Assembly (NCBI GenBank): GCA_018823885.1
Contig: JAHJHG010000009.1
Coordinates: forward strand, 151,751-215,750
DNA: 64,000 nucleotides
Direction of reading: 5' to 3'
DNA from: Patescibacteria group bacterium
GTDB taxonomy: Bacteria > Patescibacteriota > Microgenomatia > UBA8517
In this document: positions 2,190 to 23,898 of the stretch, piece by piece
Position numbering within the stretch: the stretch's first letter is position 1
Layout of the letters: the number at the start of each line of letters is the position of its first letter
Position numbers and translations under genes: made by a program
Notes under the pieces: model-generated
What the model was told of the DNA's origin: nothing
The model's database searches: none
What the model saw: the letters and a program-made list of their open reading frames with translations, nothing else

Positions 2190-2468
2190 ATGACCGCCCA
2201 GTCTAAAATGACACTATCAAGGTTTAATGTTGTTTTTAACTTGCCCACTAGATATATAACCGTTAATAAAAAAATATCAGGCGGACAACCCCTTTTGAGA
2301 GGCACTAGAGTCCCAGTTGATTTAATATTCGACTTCATTGTTAAAGGATGGAGCATAGGAGAACTTCCTGCACATTTTCCTGGAATAGACACTTCTTTGG
2401 TTGAAAAACTTGTACGATATCGTTCCATCGAATCCTCACGAGATGAACTCAAAGAGAAAAGAAAATAA
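2190..2468 (+). CDS. DUF433-family small protein (putative antitoxin-like)
   Basis: 92 aa with the GGQPLLRGTRVPVDLIFDFIVKGWSIGELPAHFP core typical of DUF433. Overlaps the next gene. Confidence 0.6.
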   Translation: MTAQSKMTLSRFNVVFNLPTRYITVNKKISGGQPLLRGTRVPVDLIFDFIVKGWSIGELPAHFPGIDTSLVEKLVRYRSIESSRDELKEKRK

Positions 2469-2823
2469 AGGAACACTCGTTTGGGATGCAGGCGCATCAA
2501 GATTACTACAAGAAAGCGCACGAAATGCTGGATATAAGATAATAGCAGTTAATCCTCTTGATAAAACATCGGGTGATCGACTTATTGCTTCCAAATATGC
2601 ACAGGGTAGATTTCCCGTTGTAACTAGCGATAGGACTGCATGGAAAGAGATGCTTGTTGAGAAAGGAGCTACAGCCATTGTGTGTATCAAGAATCCCAGA
2701 AAAGAAGATTTTGGAATAATCAAAAAAAAGCTGGAATCATTTTTAAAGAAAAGCACAGCAAATAGTCTAAGGGGATATATTTGGACAGTTTCTGTAACCA
2801 AAGTTGATAAAAAGAAAATATAG
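2443..2823 (+). CDS. DUF5615-like PIN-like small protein (putative toxin partner of DUF433)
   Basis: LVWDAGASRLL...VVTSDRTAWKEM pattern resembles the DUF5615/Mut7-C-like LVDENL...TxDxDF pattern. Overlaps the DUF433 gene by 26 nt with an ATG at 2443. The ORF track begins earlier, at a TTG at 2401. Confidence 0.5.
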   Translation: MNSKRKENKGTLVWDAGASRLLQESARNAGYKIIAVNPLDKTSGDRLIASKYAQGRFPVVTSDRTAWKEMLVEKGATAIVCIKNPRKEDFGIIKKKLESFLKKSTANSLRGYIWTVSVTKVDKKKI

Positions 2824-2962
2824 TCTTTTGTACCCTATGTATTTTACCCAGCCTATGATATTACATAGCTTTCATGAGTGTTACTATCATAAAACGAAAA
2901 ATGGGTGTCGCCCTCTCGGGCGCTCGCCGACTGATTGACCACCAAACAACCGATTTAAGGGG

Positions 2963-3268
2963 GTGAGTAGGATGATTAAATTTAATTCAACACAAGAATT
3001 TACAAAAACCAATATAAAGAAATTGCCTACCAACAAAGCCATTATTTACAAAATAAAAGACAGCAAAGGCAAAAATATATATACTGGCATAGCTGGAAGA
3101 GGGGAAAGTCAAAATAGATTACTTGCTCACAAGGAATTAAAAAAGGATAAAATTCCAGGAGCGAGTAAATTTCAAATTAAACAGGTTAAAAATAAGGATA
3201 TTGCCAGAAGAAGTGAGAAACAAATAATCAAGAGCGAAAGACCTAAATTTAATAAACAAGATAAATAA
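2963..3268 (+). CDS. Small GIY-YIG-like domain protein
   Basis: AIIYKIKDSKGKNIYTGIAGRGESQNRLLAH matches the GIY...YIG...R pattern. Basic C-terminal tail. Confidence 0.45.
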   Translation: MSRMIKFNSTQEFTKTNIKKLPTNKAIIYKIKDSKGKNIYTGIAGRGESQNRLLAHKELKKDKIPGASKFQIKQVKNKDIARRSEKQIIKSERPKFNKQDK

Positions 3269-3386
3269 CCCAACACGAAAGCCATCTGCAAGTTATGGCG
3301 ATTGAATAAGATTATTAGTGTTATCTAAAAAAATAAAGAGTGGAGTGGAATTAATGAATAAGAAGAAATTAAAAAAATAGAAAAGT

Positions 3387-4072
3387 ATGGGAATAAATAT
3401 GTCAAAGAAATACTGGAAACCCAATACAATAATAAACAGAACCTTAGACGCAACTGGTATAAGGGATTGGAATTTTTTTTCTCAAAAAGCTTTTATAGAG
3501 GAAGAAAAGATGAAATATCTGATGTATTTCAACAAAGAGCACTGGAAACAATTAAGGAATTTGACTTAAAAAAGAATATTGGAAAGTTTTCCTCTTCAAG
3601 TTTTACCAACTTACTTCAAAAAAACGGAGTAAATAACAATATGGATCGACGGATGGTTTGTGAAACGATCCAGTTAGTAAAAGGTGATGCTAATAAAAAT
3701 ATTGTTTCCTACTCGATCAATAAGATAAAAAAGGGAGAGGTTGGTGAAATTTATGAAGAATTGTGCAACATATATGGAATCGCAGATAAAATCGCATGTT
3801 TCTTTTTGAGAGATGTTTCTATTACTTTTAATTTAGATAAAATGATCGACGAAGAAGATTATAAATATTTTCAACCGATTGATACTTGGGTCAATCAAAC
3901 ATCCAGCAAGTTGGGGATCATCGGCCCAGAGTACAATAATGTTCAGGAAATCAAATCCAAAATTATAAACTCATGTCTTAATAACAAAGTATCACCTTTA
4001 CTGTTTAATGCTGGAGCTTGGTATGTAGGAAAACACGCATTTGACATCTTTTTTGAAGAACCATTTAGGTAA
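3387..4072 (+). pseudogene. HhH-GPD-type DNA glycosylase-like protein, reading frame broken at a T8 homopolymer (3473-3480)
   Basis: Two overlapping ORFs, 3387-3569 and 3467-4072 (TTG start), join into one ~229-aa ORF if the T8 run is read as T9. The downstream part carries a helix-hairpin-helix-like IYGIADKIACFFL followed by PIDTWV, resembling the EndoIII-family GxGxKxA...VDTHV signature. Confidence 0.35.
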
Positions 4073-4121
4073 CCCCTATTTATACTGTTTCATTTGTCTC
4101 GTTTAGTTTTAATGTGAGACA

Positions 4122-4424
4122 ATGGTGTTAATGTTTTATACATATATCATACGCACGACGGGGAACACTTTGTACACAGGTCAAACAAATAACCTTAAGC
4201 GAAGAGTAGAGGAACACACAATCCACGGCAAGCGGGCTTCTAAGTATTTGAAATCATTTTTAGGTTGTAAGCTTGTTTACTATGAAATTTATCCTATCCG
4301 AAGCGAGGCAATGCGCCGAGAGGCTGAATTAAAGAATTGGTCTCATGATGAAAAGGAGGATCTTGTTAAACAGTGTCAATTTCCGCTGACAGAATTTAAT
4401 GTGGAACAAAAAGTTCCAATATAG
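4122..4424 (+). CDS. GIY-YIG nuclease superfamily protein (YhbQ/UPF0213-like)
   Basis: FYTYIIRTTGNTLYTGQTNNLKRRVEEH is a classic GIY-YIG N-terminus. Paralogous to 25716-25973. Confidence 0.7.
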   Translation: MVLMFYTYIIRTTGNTLYTGQTNNLKRRVEEHTIHGKRASKYLKSFLGCKLVYYEIYPIRSEAMRREAELKNWSHDEKEDLVKQCQFPLTEFNVEQKVPI

Positions 4425-4434
4425 TCCCAGATGG

Positions 4435-4544
4435 TCAGCCCAATTAGGCACCCTAGCGACCCAGGTGTCTAGAATAACCCGGAAGTTTTTGTTAAAACGC
4501 CAGTTAAAACCTCAAACATTCGTACCACATCCTCACTGTCCGGA
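4435..4544. repeat. Copy A of a ~108-bp direct repeat family (GGCACCCTAGCGACCCA...AAACATTCGTACCACA...CCGGA)
   Basis: Roughly 80% identical by eye to 20853-20960. Shares both ends with 19300-19408. Same orientation in all copies. Confidence 0.6.
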
Positions 4545-4586
4545 AATTTCTATTAAAAATGGTAAAATTGATCGAAACAATCAATA

Positions 4587-7556
4587 ATGATGGAAAATAC
4601 TGTTAAAAACTATATTCAGTCAATCTCCTCAAAATTCTCTTACGAGGAAACTAGCGAGATGGGGTATCGTACTGATTTTGAAATATTGCTTAAAGAAATT
4701 TTCAAATCAATCAAGGTTACTCGCTTTGATCATGATGCGAGAGCCAGACAGGGCAATAAACCGGATTTTGTTGTAGTTAACAATAGCGTGCCTATTTTGT
4801 ATATAGAAACGAAAGATATTGGAAAGTCTCTAGATAAAGTTGAGAAATCAGAACAAATGACCAGATATTTTGGGTATGCCAATCTTGTTCTCACAGATTA
4901 CACAGAGTTTCGTTTTTACAGAAACGGTATTAATTATGGTGAGCCAATAAAAATTGCGGATTATGATATAAAAGATCGAACAATCACTCCGAACCCGAAA
5001 AATTATGAATACCTAGCAAAAACCCTACTTGATTTTACTAAGTCCCACAAAGAACCAATCCGTTCGGGTAAGCACCTTTCAAGAATTATGGGTGGCAAAG
5101 CTCAGAGAATTCGTGATAACACACGCCACTTTTTCTCCAATGGGTCGAAAAAAGATACAGATCTTGTCAAATTGTTTGAAACCTTTAAAAAACTTCTCTT
5201 ACATGATCTGACACCAGACTCTTTCGCTGACATGTATGCACAGACTCTTGTATATGGTCTTTTTGTCGCGCGCTATCACGATAAAACACTTGGTAATTTT
5301 TCAAGACAAGAAGCTCGTGAGCTCATCCCAAATTCCAATCCTCTTTTGCGTCACTTTTTCGATCATATAGTTGGAGCAGATTTTGATAAACGACTTAAAT
5401 ACATTGTTGATGAGTTGTGTGAGGTATTCTCACATGCCGACGTAGCCAAACTCATGGAGGAATATTTCAAGGAAGATTCCCAAAATGGACAAAAAGGCCC
5501 AGATCCAGTTATCCATTTTTATGAGGATTTTTTAAAGAAGTATGATCCAGATTTAAGAAAAAAGATGGGAGCTTACTACACTCCACAACCTATTGTGCAA
5601 TTTATCGTTTGCTCAATCGACTATTTACTCAAAAAAGAATTCGGACTTTCAACTGGCCTTGCTGATACTTCAAAAACGACAGATAATATTCATCGCGTTC
5701 AGATTCTTGATCCGGCAGTGGGAACAGGAACATTTATCAGTGCAGTTATCAGAACAATTTATAAGAGACTATTAAAAAAAGGGCAAAAGGGACGATGGCC
5801 TGCATATGTCCACAATGACTTGCTTCCACGCCTGCACGGTTTTGAGATAATGATGGCTCCATATACAATAGCCCATTTAAAATTAGGTATTGATTTTAGA
5901 AAGACTGGATTTTGGGATTTCCATCGTCGTTTGGGTATTTATCTTACTAATTCACTAGAGGAAAGTAGTATCCAACAGCAAGATTTATTTGCATTTGGTT
6001 TGGCAGAAAGTATCGCTGAAGAATCAAAAGAGGCATCAGTCATTAAGAACAAAACTCCAATTATGGTTGTAATTGGCAATCCACCTTATAGTGTTAGTTC
6101 ATCAAATGTAAATGCATATACAAAGAAATTAATAGAAGTATATAAAAGAGGCTTAAATTTAAGAAATACACAACCGTTATCTGATGATTATATTAAGTTT
6201 ATAAGATTGGCTGAAGTTTTAATAAATAAAAATAAAAGTGGAATAGTTGCGTATATTTCAAACAGATCTTTCTTGGAGGGTATTATCCATAAATCAATGA
6301 GAGCGTCACTTCTTGGTTCGTTTGATGATATATACATTGTTGACTTAAACGGTGATGCGACAATCAATCAAACAAGAGATAATCCTGATAATGATCAAAA
6401 TGTTTTTGATATAAAACAAGGTGTAGCAATATCAATTTTTGTGAAAAAGGTAAATAGTGTTACAGAGAAAAAATTAAATTATTTTAGTGTTCGTGGCAGT
6501 CGATTATCAAAGTTTGATTTTTTAAGTAGCACAAAATTAAGTGATATTGATTTTTCTGAACTCCAACCAAATTCAGAATTCAATTTTTTTGTTGAAAAAG
6601 ACTTAACTAATGATGAGTACGTAAAATTTATTTCTCTAGACGAAATATTTAATGTCCATTCAAGTGCAATAGCAACATCTGATGATAACAACTTGGTATC
6701 GTTTACAAAAAGAGACGAATATAAAATCCCGTTTTCGTACAGACCCTTTGATCAGAGATATATCAATTATGATTTGAAGAAAGTAAAAGGTAATCGTTAT
6801 AATCGTTTGGTTAAATTTTTAATAAATGAAGAATTTAGTGAACTTTTTGAAAATATAAGTTTGGCTTGCTCAAAAAATATCACAACAGAAAGTTTCTCTA
6901 GTGTTTTAGCTAGTAAATCACTTATTGAAAGGAAGTTTTGTGATTATTCAAGAGGCCCACATGTTTTTCCTCTTTACATATACAATGGCAAGGAATCACG
7001 TATCTCAAATGTGAACAATAATTTTACTGCTAATGTATCTCGAATAGTTGGTGATGTATATCCTGAAGATATTTTTGATTATATTTATGCAGTTTTATAC
7101 TCACCCAGCTACCGTGAGGAATACAGGGAATTTTTGAAAATTGATTTTCCAAGAATTCCATATCCTAAGAATAAAGAAGGTTTTAAAAAACTTGTTTCGC
7201 TCGGAAACGAATTAAGAGCACTTCATTTACTGGAATCGTCGAAGTTGAATCAATTCATTACTACTTATTCTATTGATGGGTCTAATATTGTAGAAGAAAC
7301 AAATTACCAAAATGGGAATGTTCGTATCAATGAAAATCAATATTTTGGGAATGTTCCAGAAATAGCCTGGAATTTTCATATCGGCGGGTATCGACCAGCT
7401 CAAAAATGGCTAAAAGATCGCAAAGGTCGAAAATTAATCAATAAAGACCTTGAACATTATCAGAAAATAATTGTTGTTTTGGTAGAGACGGTAAAGATTA
7501 TGGAAGAGATAGATAAATTTTACAATTTGGTAATAAGTTCCTCAAAAAGCCAATGA
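4587..7556 (+). CDS. Type IIG restriction-modification enzyme (fused PD-(D/E)xK endonuclease, gamma-class N6-adenine methyltransferase and C-terminal specificity domain; MmeI/Eco57I-like)
   Basis: N-terminal PDFVVV...ILYIETKD (PD...ExK). GAYYTPQPIV (Eco57I-family MTase signature). DPAVGTGTF (motif I). NPPY (motif IV). A long C-terminal domain ends in the GGYRPAQKWLKDRKG box typical of this family. Confidence 0.75.
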   Translation: MMENTVKNYIQSISSKFSYEETSEMGYRTDFEILLKEIFKSIKVTRFDHDARARQGNKPDFVVVNNSVPILYIETKDIGKSLDKVEKSEQMTRYFGYANLVLTDYTEFRFYRNGINYGEPIKIADYDIKDRTITPNPKNYEYLAKTLLDFTKSHKEPIRSGKHLSRIMGGKAQRIRDNTRHFFSNGSKKDTDLVKLFETFKKLLLHDLTPDSFADMYAQTLVYGLFVARYHDKTLGNFSRQEARELIPNSNPLLRHFFDHIVGADFDKRLKYIVDELCEVFSHADVAKLMEEYFKEDSQNGQKGPDPVIHFYEDFLKKYDPDLRKKMGAYYTPQPIVQFIVCSIDYLLKKEFGLSTGLADTSKTTDNIHRVQILDPAVGTGTFISAVIRTIYKRLLKKGQKGRWPAYVHNDLLPRLHGFEIMMAPYTIAHLKLGIDFRKTGFWDFHRRLGIYLTNSLEESSIQQQDLFAFGLAESIAEESKEASVIKNKTPIMVVIGNPPYSVSSSNVNAYTKKLIEVYKRGLNLRNTQPLSDDYIKFIRLAEVLINKNKSGIVAYISNRSFLEGIIHKSMRASLLGSFDDIYIVDLNGDATINQTRDNPDNDQNVFDIKQGVAISIFVKKVNSVTEKKLNYFSVRGSRLSKFDFLSSTKLSDIDFSELQPNSEFNFFVEKDLTNDEYVKFISLDEIFNVHSSAIATSDDNNLVSFTKRDEYKIPFSYRPFDQRYINYDLKKVKGNRYNRLVKFLINEEFSELFENISLACSKNITTESFSSVLASKSLIERKFCDYSRGPHVFPLYIYNGKESRISNVNNNFTANVSRIVGDVYPEDIFDYIYAVLYSPSYREEYREFLKIDFPRIPYPKNKEGFKKLVSLGNELRALHLLESSKLNQFITTYSIDGSNIVEETNYQNGNVRINENQYFGNVPEIAWNFHIGGYRPAQKWLKDRKGRKLINKDLEHYQKIIVVLVETVKIMEEIDKFYNLVISSSKSQ

Positions 7557-18513: not shown

Positions 18514-18519
18514 TTGTTT

Positions 18520-18800
18520 TTCGAAGGTGGTACTGGGGACTGGCTAGGAATTGGTAAAGTTGTTGTGATGTTGATGCTGGTATCGGTCTCACTTGGATAG
18601 GTCTAGTCGCCGTTGATTGTTTGGAGCAAGGAGGTAGGATTTTTTATTAAACAGCATATGCTGTCCCTCCTCCTGCGCTTTGTTCGGCGATCCACCCACA
18701 CCCTTTACTTGATATTCAATTGTAGGAAACTTTAGACGCCCAAATCGTCATGTCTCCTGCTTTCTCTACAGATAAGCCAGTCCCCACCGGCTGTCAAGCT
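18520..18800. ncRNA. Candidate structured RNA of unknown class in a 375-bp intergenic region
   Basis: An 11-bp long-range complement joins 18534-18544 (TGGGGACTGGC) and 18777-18787 (GCCAGTCCCCA). There is an internal perfect palindrome ACAGCATATGCTGT, a GGAGG/CCTCC flanking stem, and a further hairpin GGCTG..CGAAC/GTTCG.CAGCC at 18790-18832. Strand and class are undetermined. Confidence 0.2.
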
Positions 18801-18889
18801 TCGAACGAATAAGCAATAATGGTTCGTCAGCCTGACTTCTAACTCATAATACCACAGCTAATATATTTTTCACAAGTAGTTGATATACT

Positions 18890-19201
18890 TTGAACATGGA
18901 GAGAAATTTTGGGGGAGTAGTTTGGACAAATCATGCCTTGAAAAGATTAACAGAAAGAAATATTTCTCAGGGTGATGCTTGGGCAGCCTTCAGGCGTCCA
19001 GAGCAATCAGAGTATGCGAAAGCAAAAGGTGCCTGGATATATTACAAAACCTATGGGAATCAAAGAATTGAAGTTGTTGCCAAGCAAAATGAAAAAAAAG
19101 AATGGATAATTCTTTCTGTTTGGTCAAGGCAAGTTTTCAAAAAAACAAAAAAAATGGATTCTCTTGCAAAACTGCTTTGGAAGAGAATTTTTAAGAAATA
19201 G
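18890..19201 (+). CDS. DUF4258-like small protein (putative BECR-fold toxin-like RNase domain)
   Basis: WTNHALKRLTERNIS matches the DUF4258 signature (TxHAxxRMxERxI). 103 aa. No adjacent partner gene recognised. Confidence 0.5.
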   Translation: MNMERNFGGVVWTNHALKRLTERNISQGDAWAAFRRPEQSEYAKAKGAWIYYKTYGNQRIEVVAKQNEKKEWIILSVWSRQVFKKTKKMDSLAKLLWKRIFKK

Positions 19202-19231: not shown

Positions 19232-19302
19232 TGCGGGATGGTGTAATGGTAGCACGCTGCTCTCTGGAAGCAGAGATTGGGGTTCGAGTCCCTGTCCCGC
19301 AG
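19232..19302 (+). tRNA. tRNA-Gln (anticodon CUG)
   Basis: Manual cloverleaf: acceptor TGCGGGA/TCCCGCA with U1:A72 (typical of bacterial tRNA-Gln). D-stem GTGT/GCAC. Anticodon stem CTGCT/AGCAG with loop CTCTGGA. T-arm TGGGG-TTCGAGT-CCCTG. Discriminator G. CCA not encoded. Confidence 0.85.
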
Positions 19303-19408
19303 CTAGTTTGGGCACCCTATTGACCCATATGCCTCGAAAAGCCCATGTTTCTCTTCAAAACTATCGATCATACTCCCAAACATTCGTACCACACCCTCAG
19401 CTTCCGGA
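19300..19408. repeat. Copy B of the ~108-bp direct repeat family, immediately 3' of tRNA-Gln
   Basis: TTGGGCACCCTATTGACCCATATG...CCAAACATTCGTACCACACCCTCAGCTTCCGGA. Its ends align with copies A and C. Confidence 0.55.
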
Positions 19409-19452: not shown

Positions 19453-20352
19453 ATGGCGGATTTCAAAATAACTCTGATTCTTGGAACTGAACTGGCAGGC
19501 ATAAGAAATCTTATTGATCAACTCGAAGGCTTGCATTTCGGAATATTAATAAATAGCCTCAGATGGGAAAGTCAAATCGAAGGAGAAAAAAGAAAAAAAG
19601 AATACTATAAATCGATAAAGGAAAATGTAATAAAGATTAACAAAAGAATAAAAGACTTCAATATTCTTCTAAAAAGAGCATTTGATACCAAATACTACAC
19701 GTTCAGAAAACTTGAACAAATAAAATTAAGTAGTCTGGATAAAATAATTAAGGAACACCGTGGTGAATTTCCTCGTAACAAAAAGGAAGAAAGTTACATA
19801 AAATATGTAATGGCTGAAGACAGCTCACCTTCTTCCCTCGCTAGAAAACACACTTCTGTTCTCCTAAGTAACGCTCTCCTTCCGACCAAGTTGTCTATTT
19901 CAAATTTCGCAAAGGGATTTGACAAGCTTTACGAACCGTTTGGTGATTATAATAGTTTAAATATCCGTTCTAAAACTATTAACGACATCACAAAGGCTGA
20001 AGTTTGTTATACAAACGGGTTGGCAGAAGAAGCTGTTTTCATCCTCGGCAGGACAGTCGAGAGATTGTCAATAGATTGTCTAAAACATCTAAAAAAATTA
20101 GGTAGAGTAAATAAAACTTATAGTGAAATTGACGAGCTCAATTTTGAAAACAGTATTAACTTACTCTCAAGTCCTAAAATAAAAGTTTTTAGAAAAGATC
20201 AAAAACCCAAAGCTCTCGCATTAAAGTGGGATAGAAACATTTATGGACACAAACGATCTTCACCCTCAAAAATGAAGGAGAAAGACATGGATTCCATGAT
20301 TAAAATAGGTATTAATATAATTGAAAGATTAGAAAAAAAATTAAGAAGCTAG
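19453..20352 (+). CDS. Hypothetical protein with a C-terminal HEPN-like Rx4H motif (Abi/DUF4145-like)
   Basis: 299 aa. C-terminal ALKWDRNIYGHKRS fits the HEPN Rx4-6H motif. The helical region before it is predicted by eye. No other domain recognised. Confidence 0.4.
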   Translation: MADFKITLILGTELAGIRNLIDQLEGLHFGILINSLRWESQIEGEKRKKEYYKSIKENVIKINKRIKDFNILLKRAFDTKYYTFRKLEQIKLSSLDKIIKEHRGEFPRNKKEESYIKYVMAEDSSPSSLARKHTSVLLSNALLPTKLSISNFAKGFDKLYEPFGDYNSLNIRSKTINDITKAEVCYTNGLAEEAVFILGRTVERLSIDCLKHLKKLGRVNKTYSEIDELNFENSINLLSSPKIKVFRKDQKPKALALKWDRNIYGHKRSSPSKMKEKDMDSMIKIGINIIERLEKKLRS

Positions 20353-20371
20353 GAATACTGAGACAAATCGT

Positions 20372-20806
20372 GTGTACATGACTATTGGGGATCAAATAAA
20401 GGAAAATTTCTACAGAATAGCCTCATCACTGGCTCCTAATCCCGTTGTAAAACGTGTTATACCAGAAAAATTGAAAAATTATCATGTAGTATGGGACGCT
20501 GAAACAGTAGAAGAACTCTCAACCGGTAAAAAAATTTCACGAGATAACTGGGCGCGAAAGAAAGCGAAAATCAATGGCTTCTATGACGATTTTTTGAAAG
20601 GGAATATCGAAAAGACCCAGATACTTGTAGTAAAAGATTTGGATAATCCAACTATGTTGATTGTTGATGGTATTCATAGGTCAGTGGGTTTTTATACGGC
20701 TTACCTCGAAAATCCAGAAATTGCTTCAAAAACAGATTTCACATATAAACTTTTTGAGTCAAATAAAATAAGAAAGATGTATGATTACAAAAGGTTATTT
20801 AGTTAG
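20372..20806 (+). CDS. Hypothetical protein with a ParB/sulfiredoxin-like motif
   Basis: QILVVKDLDNPTMLIVDGIHRSVGFYTAYL resembles the ParB N-terminal / Srx motif (xxVDGxHRxxA). 144 aa. Lies 19 nt downstream of the previous gene. Confidence 0.4.
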   Translation: MYMTIGDQIKENFYRIASSLAPNPVVKRVIPEKLKNYHVVWDAETVEELSTGKKISRDNWARKKAKINGFYDDFLKGNIEKTQILVVKDLDNPTMLIVDGIHRSVGFYTAYLENPEIASKTDFTYKLFESNKIRKMYDYKRLFS

Positions 20807-20852
20807 AGTTCTATGGTTTAAATTATAAGGACTAGAGAGGCCTAAGCCCACA

Positions 20853-20960
20853 AGCTCAGCCAAATTGGGCACCCTAGCGACCCATGTGCTAAGAATAACC
20901 CGAAAGTTCTTGCTTAACCTCCGTATTATTTCCAAAACATTCAGTTTACAATGCTGAACC
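20853..20960. repeat. Copy C of the ~108-bp direct repeat family
   Basis: TTGGGCACCCTAGCGACCCATGTGCTAAGAATAACCCGAAAGTTCTTG...AAACATTCAGTTTACA. About 80% identical by eye to copy A. Confidence 0.6.
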
Positions 20961-20974
20961 TCACATTTTAGTGT

Positions 20975-22159: not shown

Positions 22160-22267
22160 AGCTCATAAGTATACCATAGAACCACAAGCAAAACAAGTAC
22201 TGTTACCATGACCTCTCTTTTAGCCTCAACTGTGGTACACTCAGAGTAATTGGTTATGGGCTCGAAA

Positions 22268-22350
22268 GGTTCTAGACCGACATGCTCAATTATCTCGGAA
22301 TCAGAACCCCAGGCACGACATCCAGTTATGGGACTGGAAGGGTCTAGACC
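22268..22350. promoter_or_regulatory. Pair of palindromic operator-like sites (GGTTCTAGACC at 22268-22278 and a perfect GGTCTAGACC at 22341-22350), each followed by a (C/G)ATGCTCA-like half-box
   Basis: 10-bp perfect palindrome. The extended motif R-G-K-TCTAGACC-N3-RKGCTCA recurs at 23808-23818 and 23855-23864. Confidence 0.3.
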
Positions 22351-22438
22351 AGAGAGCTCAGCAAAGATTTTTAGTCTCTGTTTTACGGTAAAAGTCAAAA
22401 AATATATTTTCAATATTTGCTATAATTAACATAACAGT

Positions 22439-23780: not shown

Positions 23781-23807
23781 AATAATAACACTATTAGATT
23801 CTAGACC

Positions 23808-23864
23808 CACTCGTTTAACTTGCTGGGAATAGACTGTAAGTAAGGGATCAAGTAGTTCTAGACC
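23808..23864. promoter_or_regulatory. Second pair of TCTAGACC palindromic sites (ATTCTAGACCC at 23808-23818; GTTCTAGACC plus TGTATGCTCAGCC at 23855-23877)
   Basis: Same extended motif as at 22268-22350. Lies between convergent genes. Confidence 0.3.
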
Positions 23865-23898
23865 TGTATGCTCAGCCACATAACACACTGAGGATTTT

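Follow-up and report, generated by a model that had tools for sequence, protein, structure and literature searches.

A putative HEPN ribonuclease gene and a minimal ParB/Srx-fold gene in the tRNA-Gln flank of a Patescibacteria genome: two neighbours rather than a conserved two-gene system

The DNA considered here, referred to as the window, comprises 64,000 nt of contig JAHJHG010000009.1 (GCA_018823885.1) from Patescibacteria and carries two neighbouring genes of the same orientation, designated P1 and P2, in the 3' flank of a tRNA-Gln gene (Table 1; all coordinates are window positions unless another locus is named). At NCBI the products of both genes are labelled hypothetical proteins of 'Patescibacteria group bacterium', and the flanking genes have their close relatives in Woesebacteria/Microgenomates metagenome-assembled genomes. 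An initial annotation had proposed that P1 and P2 form a novel two-gene defence module. The two open reading frames (ORFs) were confirmed with 299 and 144 codons and a spacing of 19 nt; from the ATG start codon of the database annotation, P2 comprises 142 residues and the gap amounts to 25 nt. No terminator-like site was found between P1 and P2, and the two are probably co-transcribed. The proposed module fails because the two families never co-occur elsewhere among the loci compared (nine distinct contexts of P1 and 13 of P2): P1 and P2 lie side by side in this lineage only and do not constitute a conserved system.

P1 is composed of an all-helical N-terminal half (residues 1 to about 170) and a C-terminal HEPN domain of the DUF4145 clade (residues 170 to 299, approximately). 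Two hallmarks of the HEPN superfamily are present, namely the up-and-down helical-bundle fold and a conserved Rx4-6H motif, which in P1 is an Rx4H motif of the canonical RN...H form, predicted to be catalytic and aligned inside the match to the DUF4145 profile (residues 182-285, corresponding to positions 3-86 of 88). The motif is part of KWDRNIYGHKRS (nt 20224-20259, residues 258-269), which is close to the C-terminus and not, as had been stated, at the end of the gene. K258, W259, D260, R261, N262, G265, and H266 are invariant in 12 P1-family sequences, which are 33-93% identical. Compared with DUF4145 in Pfam (PF13643), P1 scores 13.9 bits (E=0.058), which is under the gathering cut-off of 23.1 bits; all 12 family proteins match the profile below or near the threshold (best E=7.1e-5; 21.0 bits for P0003), and two relatives have 'faint' precomputed matches. 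Judged by these profile comparisons, the P1 family is a divergent sister group of DUF4145 rather than a clean member, and P1 represents a new subfamily within a kind already known, the restriction-modification (R-M)-associated DUF4145 HEPN proteins with predicted RNase activity. What P1 adds is a well-defined subfamily with an invariant catalytic motif and a second invariant motif in the N-terminal half. The latter, SxSxLxR(K)HT at residues 125-134 (nt 19825-19854), lies outside the HEPN domain, is found in 12 of 12 family proteins, and could be a phosphate-binding or regulatory site. A near-identical copy of P1 is located in another genome (L004, 362-1246), where 702 bp corresponding to window positions 19639-20340 and to the C-terminal 236 codons show 95% DNA identity. 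The N-terminal 60 residues or so of this copy and its flanks are unrelated, homology stops at the stop codon, and a gene for a membrane protein follows in place of P2; the mosaic points to a recent intragenic recombination event or, possibly, to chimerism of the assembly.

P2 is a single-domain protein with the characteristic alpha/beta fold of the ParB/Srx (ParB-CTPase) superfamily. Its DGIHR sequence, contained in MLIVDGIHRSVGF (nt 20654-20692), is a predicted phosphate-binding motif of the DGxHR/GxxR type at a strand-to-helix junction (strand 93-97, helix 99-111) and aligns to DGVHR of SbnI. D97, G98, and R101 are invariant and H100 is nearly so in 24 family sequences; together with the fold match, this bears out the ParB/sulfiredoxin-type motif that had been recognised in P2 before. 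Bare Rx4H and DGxHR motifs are common by chance, and those of P1 and P2 are meaningful because they are invariant across their families and consistent with the fold matches. The DGxHR motif of P2 is most likely a binding site for a nucleoside triphosphate (NTP), which may also be hydrolysed there. The nearest solved relatives by sequence are kinases of the ParB/Srx fold. The DndB/DGQHR profile (PF14072) matches five of the 24 family members (best E=0.0031), P2 of the window not being among them, and P2 has no additional domain such as the larger DndB architecture would demand. Moreover, P2 is neither a DUF262/GmrSD-N sensor, which requires DGxQR plus QRxxxW together with a DUF1524/HNH nuclease or ParBDB domain, either fused or encoded next to it, nor a canonical ParB partition CTPase, which requires a GERRxRA box, a helix-turn-helix DNA-binding domain, and a parA partner. 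No relatives were detected in 185,579 GTDB species-representative genomes or in IMG/VR, and Pfam, NCBIfam, and PADLOC contain no profile for the family. P2 is a new, very rare and cleanly folding minimal family inside the known ParB/Srx fold. A 163-residue gene product in L039 was rejected as a distant P2 because it lacks DGxHR and the match was spurious, and the match to a 1269-residue protein (P0036) was set aside as one of low-complexity repeats.

Profile hidden Markov models of both families (hmmsearch) were run over all fetched loci, and a conserved P1-P2 module was rejected by these searches together with tblastn. Outside the lineage of the window no P1-P2 pair was detected, since neither was P2 found in any other P1 locus nor P1 in any other P2 locus; three further loci in which the pair is adjacent (L026-L028) represent the same genome type as the window. 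P1 thus stands without P2 in eight of nine contexts, including the copy with 95% identity, and the two families are not adjacent in several unrelated genomes, as would be expected of a conserved two-gene system. The initial annotation had itself named a lack of co-occurrence elsewhere as what would refute the module, and at the family level this is what was observed. Adjacency within one lineage does not make a system, and our finding mainly corrects an over-interpretation.

The surroundings of the relatives are nevertheless informative for each family. P1 relatives lie directly upstream of hsdS within type I R-M operons in three contexts, with the orders HsdM-GIY-YIG-PIN-P1-HsdS-HsdR (L009/L010), OLD-type ATPase, Ymh gene, P1, 203-residue gene, HsdS, HsdR (L011), and HsdM-Bro-UvrD-AbiV-P1-HsdS (L112). 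Other relatives are solo, one of them directly after tRNA-Gln(TTG) (L005/L006), and the set of nine is completed by the window, L004, L002, L007/L008, and L113. Housekeeping genes surround P1 relatives in L005, L007, and L113 and P2 relatives in L017 and L021.

P2 relatives were found between a 210-residue gene, itself preceded by a gene for a HATPase_c_4 protein, and hsdS (E=9e-46; 4-nt overlap) followed by a gene for a SWIM protein (L019/L025); between genes for a resolvase and SLATT_4 (E=1e-29; L023); upstream of a 208-residue gene and DUF3800 (L016); 12 nt downstream of a gene for a 213-residue protein with the motif IRNKIQH (L022); after genes for 266- and 316-residue proteins (L001, where Shedu, PD-(D/E)XK, and resolvase genes are located elsewhere on the contig); and solo or among housekeeping genes (L003, L014, L017 after tRNA-Glu, L021). 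In L013 (425-2127; also L012), tRNA-Gln(CTG) is followed by a gene for a 366-residue coiled-coil protein with a TIR domain (E=7e-20), P2 (56-59% identical), and a peptidase S51 gene, which is the layout of the window with TIR replacing HEPN in a non-syntenic genome. L020 (1688-4036) contains an HNH gene, a gene for a 176-residue protein with a DLDFH motif, P2, and an overlapping gene for a 209-residue HEPN-like protein (LRNDFVH) with weak matches to Pfam HEPN_RiboL-PSP (0.029) and DUF3644 (0.0036). The 176-residue protein has no Pfam match and is possibly nucleotidyltransferase-like, and L020 could be a conflict cassette of three or four genes. The 316-residue protein encoded immediately 5' of P2 in L001 (8952-9902) is a candidate effector with a C-terminal ...VRDVHDRWVIGNN... 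segment and without a match in Pfam or the PDB. No recurrent partner family of P2 emerged, as all-vs-all BLAST of the neighbours returned only near-identical duplicate contigs. A sensor domain shared by the N-termini of P1, the TIR protein of L013, and the 316-residue protein of L001 was rejected (hhalign probabilities <=0.3%), as was a kinship of the 213- and 209-residue proteins of L022 and L020 with P1 (hhalign non-significant, only the RN...H motif being aligned) and the assignment of the 208-residue neighbour in L016 to PF05168-type HEPN proteins (BLASTP E=1.7, no PDB match). P2 is clearly associated with conflict loci, and the genomic contexts support a conflict or defence role of both families, as had been supposed for the pair.

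Table 1 Features of the window discussed in the text, with P1, P2 and their boundaries listed before the other genes
Feature	Position (nt)	Strand	Remarks
P1	19453-20352	+	ORF, 299 residues
P1 motif R261-N-I-Y-G-H266	20233-20250	+	Predicted HEPN catalytic motif (Rx4H); translation and family conservation
P2	20378-20806	+	142 residues from ATG at 20378; 144 residues if GTG at 20372 is used
P2 motif D97-G-I-H-R101	20666-20680	+	Predicted nucleotide-phosphate-binding motif; beta-strand/helix junction
tRNA-Gln(CTG)	19232-19303	+	ARAGORN; Rfam tRNA, 61 bits; last member of the conserved syntenic block
Repeat element, left copy	19289-19408	+	nhmmer E=3e-25; overlaps 3' end of tRNA-Gln and runs into P1 upstream region
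Repeat element, right copy	20847-20962	+	nhmmer E=4.5e-23; closes the 1.55-kb insert
Repeat element, third copy	4424-4544	+	nhmmer E=2.5e-26; between GIY-YIG gene and type IIG/ISP R-M gene
DUF4258 gene	18890-19201		Upstream of tRNA-Gln; Pfam E=8e-9
DUF433 gene and overlapping 126-residue gene			Toxin-antitoxin-like; in islet 2190-7556
GIY-YIG gene	2963-3268		Weak match; in islet 2190-7556
GIY-YIG gene	4122-4424		In islet 2190-7556
Orphan gene	3467-4072		201 residues, low GC
Type IIG/ISP R-M gene	4587-7556		Single-chain enzyme, 989 residues; Pfam Type_ISP_C 2e-62, N6_Mtase, Eco57I

The genomic setting marks P1 and P2 as an insert. Most of 80 Woesebacteria-type relatives share with the window the syntenic block g348-GluRS-g321-g108-DUF4258-tRNA-Gln, the synteny breaks immediately 3' of tRNA-Gln, and neither P1 nor P2 occupies this site in any of the 80 genomes. 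Other occupants of the site include a PF05168 HEPN gene (L030, E=4e-9) and a gene for a transmembrane-anchored DUF4145 HEPN protein (L039, E=3e-4), the remainder being housekeeping genes. With GC contents of 0.327 and 0.338 (ORF mean 0.391, standard deviation 0.030), P1 and P2 are, like the R-M gene at 4587-7556, among the most GC-poor ORFs in the window (z about -2). The repeat-flanked insert of 1.55 kb shows several features of a tRNA-targeted islet, namely a position beside a tRNA 3' end, absence from relatives, and deviant composition; an integrase gene was not found within 10 kb on either side. The DUF4258 gene, which had been described as an orphan beside the pair, does encode this domain, yet it belongs to the syntenic block upstream of the tRNA and not to the cassette.

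P1 and P2 are bracketed by an imperfect direct repeat (19300-19344 vs 20857-20901, 76% identical), the core pattern of which has three matches in the window compared with 0.01 expected by chance. The bracket and the neighbouring tRNA-Gln that the initial annotation had reported are thus real, but the repeat also occurs outside this cassette, in a third copy within the window and in other genomes. In full the element measures about 120 nt, the copies at the islet being only about 76% identical. Its head resembles a tRNA 3' end (3' strand of the T-stem, 3' strand of the acceptor stem, discriminator, and CCA), and its tail carries the conserved motif CAAACATTCGTAC..CAC.CTCA...TTCGGA. Elsewhere, copies were located in L001 (7917-8033), L031 (10419-10530), L083 (9920-10039), and L033 (10497-10611), on the minus strand in L059 (15432-15320) and L064 (16574-16456), and additionally in L030 and L049; that of L001 lies just upstream of its P2 cassette and that of L083 abuts its tRNA-Gln. 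The element is common to divergent Patescibacteria, where it is situated at boundaries of accessory genes (R-M, P1-P2, the P2 cassette of L001, after GIY-YIG, after tRNA-Gln). The position of the third window copy next to the R-M gene shows that the element is dispersed as a boundary of accessory genes, and we interpret it as a border of accessory cassettes that is att-like or derived from a tRNA trailer. The bracketing suggests that P1 and P2 entered or were assembled here as one unit of 1.55 kb. A unique pair of att sites was rejected on account of the third copy and the copies in other genomes, and so was a structured RNA, because RNAalifold gave no consensus structure, stems recognised by eye fell in inconsistent registers, and Rfam detected only the tRNA.

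Among known systems, P1 comes closest to the DUF4145 HEPN proteins embedded in R-M loci, which were described as 'in operon with R-M' (PMC3710099). The likeness comprises the C-terminal HEPN domain with RNxxxH, the weak PF13643 similarity throughout the family, and the position of relatives between hsdM-side genes and hsdS; P1 of the window differs by lacking adjacent R-M genes, by its Pfam score, and by an N-terminal half of about 170 residues that matches no described N-terminal domain. Unlike PrrC (EcoprrI), the functional paradigm of these proteins, and RloC, P1 has no ABC-ATPase domain. RAZR/PD-T7-4 is likewise a single polypeptide with a non-catalytic N-terminal domain, in its case a zinc finger, and a C-terminal DUF4145-type HEPN domain, which acts as an abortive-infection RNase and the R and H residues of which are required for defence (PMC13017515); by analogy, RAZR could be an experimentally supported model for a P1-like protein acting alone, although P1 lacks a zinc finger and has an unrelated, helical N-terminal domain. 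A HEPN protein next to a ParB-type protein, which the initial annotation had not recognised as a described system, is in itself a known theme: the HEPN survey of 2013 (Anantharaman et al.; PMC3710099) lists independent cases of HEPN-ParB fusions and operons. In the catalogued loci a HEPN RNase adjoins or is fused to a ParB-superfamily domain, as here, and the HEPN-like neighbour of P2 in L020 weakly matches one of their families, HEPN_RiboL-PSP. However, the HEPN domains of the catalogued loci belong to other clades, and their partners are ParB-like nucleases or DUF262 proteins of larger size, frequently accompanied by methylases, whereas the pair of the window, which is not conserved, combines a DUF4145-like HEPN with a minimal ParB/Srx protein of 142 residues from a separate, rare family.

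Compared with the ParB-DUF262/DndB sensors (GmrSD, BrxU, SspE, Menshen NsnA, DndB), P2 consists of a single domain with DG[IV]HR in place of DGQQR/DGQHR, lacks QRxxxW, ParBDB or another DNA-binding domain, and a fused nuclease, and scores far under the family thresholds. From the small ParB/Srx-fold enzymes and proteins sulfiredoxin, SerK, SbnI, and Osa it is separated by 11-17% identity and E-values of about 0.1; it has neither the catalytic Cys of sulfiredoxin (GCHR) nor the additional C-terminal domains found in SerK and SbnI, and its genomic context is of the conflict and not of the metabolic type. A HepT-MNT system (type II/VII) is not at hand either: the neighbour of the HEPN gene encodes a ParB/Srx fold and not a nucleotidyltransferase, and P1, with 299 residues and an extra N-terminal half, contrasts with a toxin of about 130 residues.

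With modest confidence, we regard the region of about 19.29-20.96 kb as a small acquired defence islet of two independent neighbour genes, drawn from families with independent distributions and placed in the variable flank just 3' of the conserved tRNA-Gln of a Woesebacteria-type genome. P1 would be an abortive-infection or R-M back-up effector; a role as PrrC-like back-up effectors has been suggested for HEPN proteins embedded in R-M loci (PMC3710099). In analogy to relatives characterised by experiment, P1 would be held in an inactive state that ends when infection occurs or R-M function is lost, its N-terminal domain sensing the trigger or tethering the protein to R-M partners. Pairs of R261 and H266 in a dimer or higher oligomer would form a composite active site, and activated P1 would cleave RNA (tRNA, rRNA, or mRNA), leading to a stop of translation and growth arrest. 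P2 could act on its own as a small NTP switch or as a conflict protein of the nuclease type, in which DGxHR would bind NTP phosphates as elsewhere in the fold; members of the ParB-CTPase fold bind CTP, ATP, or GTP (PMC12704722). Besides a switch or a nuclease, a kinase-like modifier is a conceivable role of P2. Patescibacteria have tiny genomes with few recognised defence systems, and each such islet shows how these epibionts handle phages. Several points weigh against the independence of the two genes. In the lineage of the window, P1 and P2 were probably acquired and are probably expressed as a unit because of the 19-25 nt gap, the uninterrupted intergenic region, and the joint repeat bracket. 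P2 relatives repeatedly adjoin effector-type genes of the same orientation, as in L013, a hint that P2 may be functionally linked to the gene next to it. Furthermore, the sample of contexts is small and many contigs are short.

In another reading, possible but on balance unlikely, a modular two-gene system would have P2 as its constant component: a minimal ParB/Srx protein, serving as NTP switch or sensor, would act in trans with an adjacent effector, which would be HEPN here, TIR in L013, and other HEPN-like proteins in L020 and L022, so that P1 and P2 would be one functional variant. Such a system would resemble the ParB-DUF262 domains that gate nucleases in GmrSD, SspE, and Menshen and have been described as sensors with polymorphic effectors (PMC12065111), and it would agree with the tight same-strand neighbours (19 nt to HEPN in the window, TIR in L013, those of L022 and L020, and the hsdS overlap in L019/L025), with the bracketing of the window pair as one unit, and with the 2013 survey, which lists a RiboL-PSP-HEPN 'operon with ParB' and other HEPN-ParB links. 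If true, P2 would be the smallest known ParB-type immune module. On the other hand, no effector gene adjoins P2 in L003, L014, L017, and L021, where it stands alone or next to genes of other kinds, its putative partner is upstream in some loci and downstream in others and belongs to no recurring family, and the HEPN calls in L020 and L022 are weak or based on the motif. The P1 family has its own N-terminal domain, which is common neither to the L013 TIR protein nor to the 316-residue protein of L001, and it mostly exists without P2, which itself has no DNA-binding domain of the kind found together with the ParB domain in known sensors. The most far-reaching form of this idea appears rather doubtful, namely that the P2 family is the core of an undescribed system of Patescibacteria and other uncultured bacteria, with a 142-residue NTP switch and swappable effectors (DUF4145-HEPN, TIR, RiboL-PSP-like HEPN, and possibly others) in cassettes marked by the 120-nt element at tRNA-Gln flanks.

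A toxin-antitoxin pair, in which P2 would neutralise the HEPN toxin P1 by binding or by ATP-dependent modification in the way MNT AMPylates HepT, might be imagined from two tightly spaced, co-oriented genes of which the second is small; the ParB/Srx fold includes phosphotransferases (Srx, SerK, SbnI), and the closest solved sequence relatives of P2 are, as mentioned, kinases of this fold. This is very improbable: P1 occurs without P2 in all contexts but one, even in its near-identical copy, and therefore does not need P2 as antitoxin, most P2 contexts lack any HEPN gene, and unlike in HepT-MNT the putative toxin comes first and no MNT-like partner is present. We also consider it quite improbable that a conflict function is absent altogether and that one or both genes encode lineage-specific housekeeping or regulatory proteins in a recombination-prone tRNA flank, P2 being, for example, a nucleotide-binding regulator or kinase and P1 a helical protein without catalytic relevance. 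The housekeeping surroundings of several relatives described above, the metabolic kinases among the ParB/Srx proteins, and the absence of any match in PADLOC-DB 2.0 (threshold E<=1; compared with P1, P2, the DUF4258 protein, and the products of two genes downstream) would fit this view. It is opposed by the extremely patchy distribution (none of the 185,579 genomes for P2, and both genes absent from the 80 syntenic relatives), the low GC content, the invariance of the HEPN catalytic motif, and the repeated presence of both families in R-M operons or beside TIR, SLATT, and HNH genes.

Several further features of the window were observed. The statement that the genome otherwise looks strictly core was not upheld, as the same window harbours the type IIG/ISP R-M gene, three GIY-YIG genes, and the DUF433 gene, most of which lie in a second accessory islet at 2190-7556 (Table 1). 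The toxin-like DUF4258 gene immediately precedes tRNA-Gln(CTG) in most of the 80 Woesebacteria-type genomes (L029-L087) and has no obvious antitoxin partner. The tRNA-Gln of the window is followed by CTA, while the relatives L029, L030, and L083 encode CCA. The gap between g108 and DUF4258 (18514-18889) comprises 376 noncoding nucleotides vs about 3-40 nt in the closest relatives; its minus strand has a minimum free energy of -110.7 kcal/mol (z=-4.25, 0 of 100 shuffles as good), has no match in Rfam, and was not found conserved in the fetched relatives. Finally, a second intergenic repeat family with the core GGTTCTAGACC...ATGCTCA is present at 22255-22360 and 23796-23874, one pair of copies being arranged in tandem (72-nt period) in the divergent gap g111/TspO and another pair lying in the convergent gap g157/g141, and short motifs similar to it by eye flank the P2 genes of L013 and L003.

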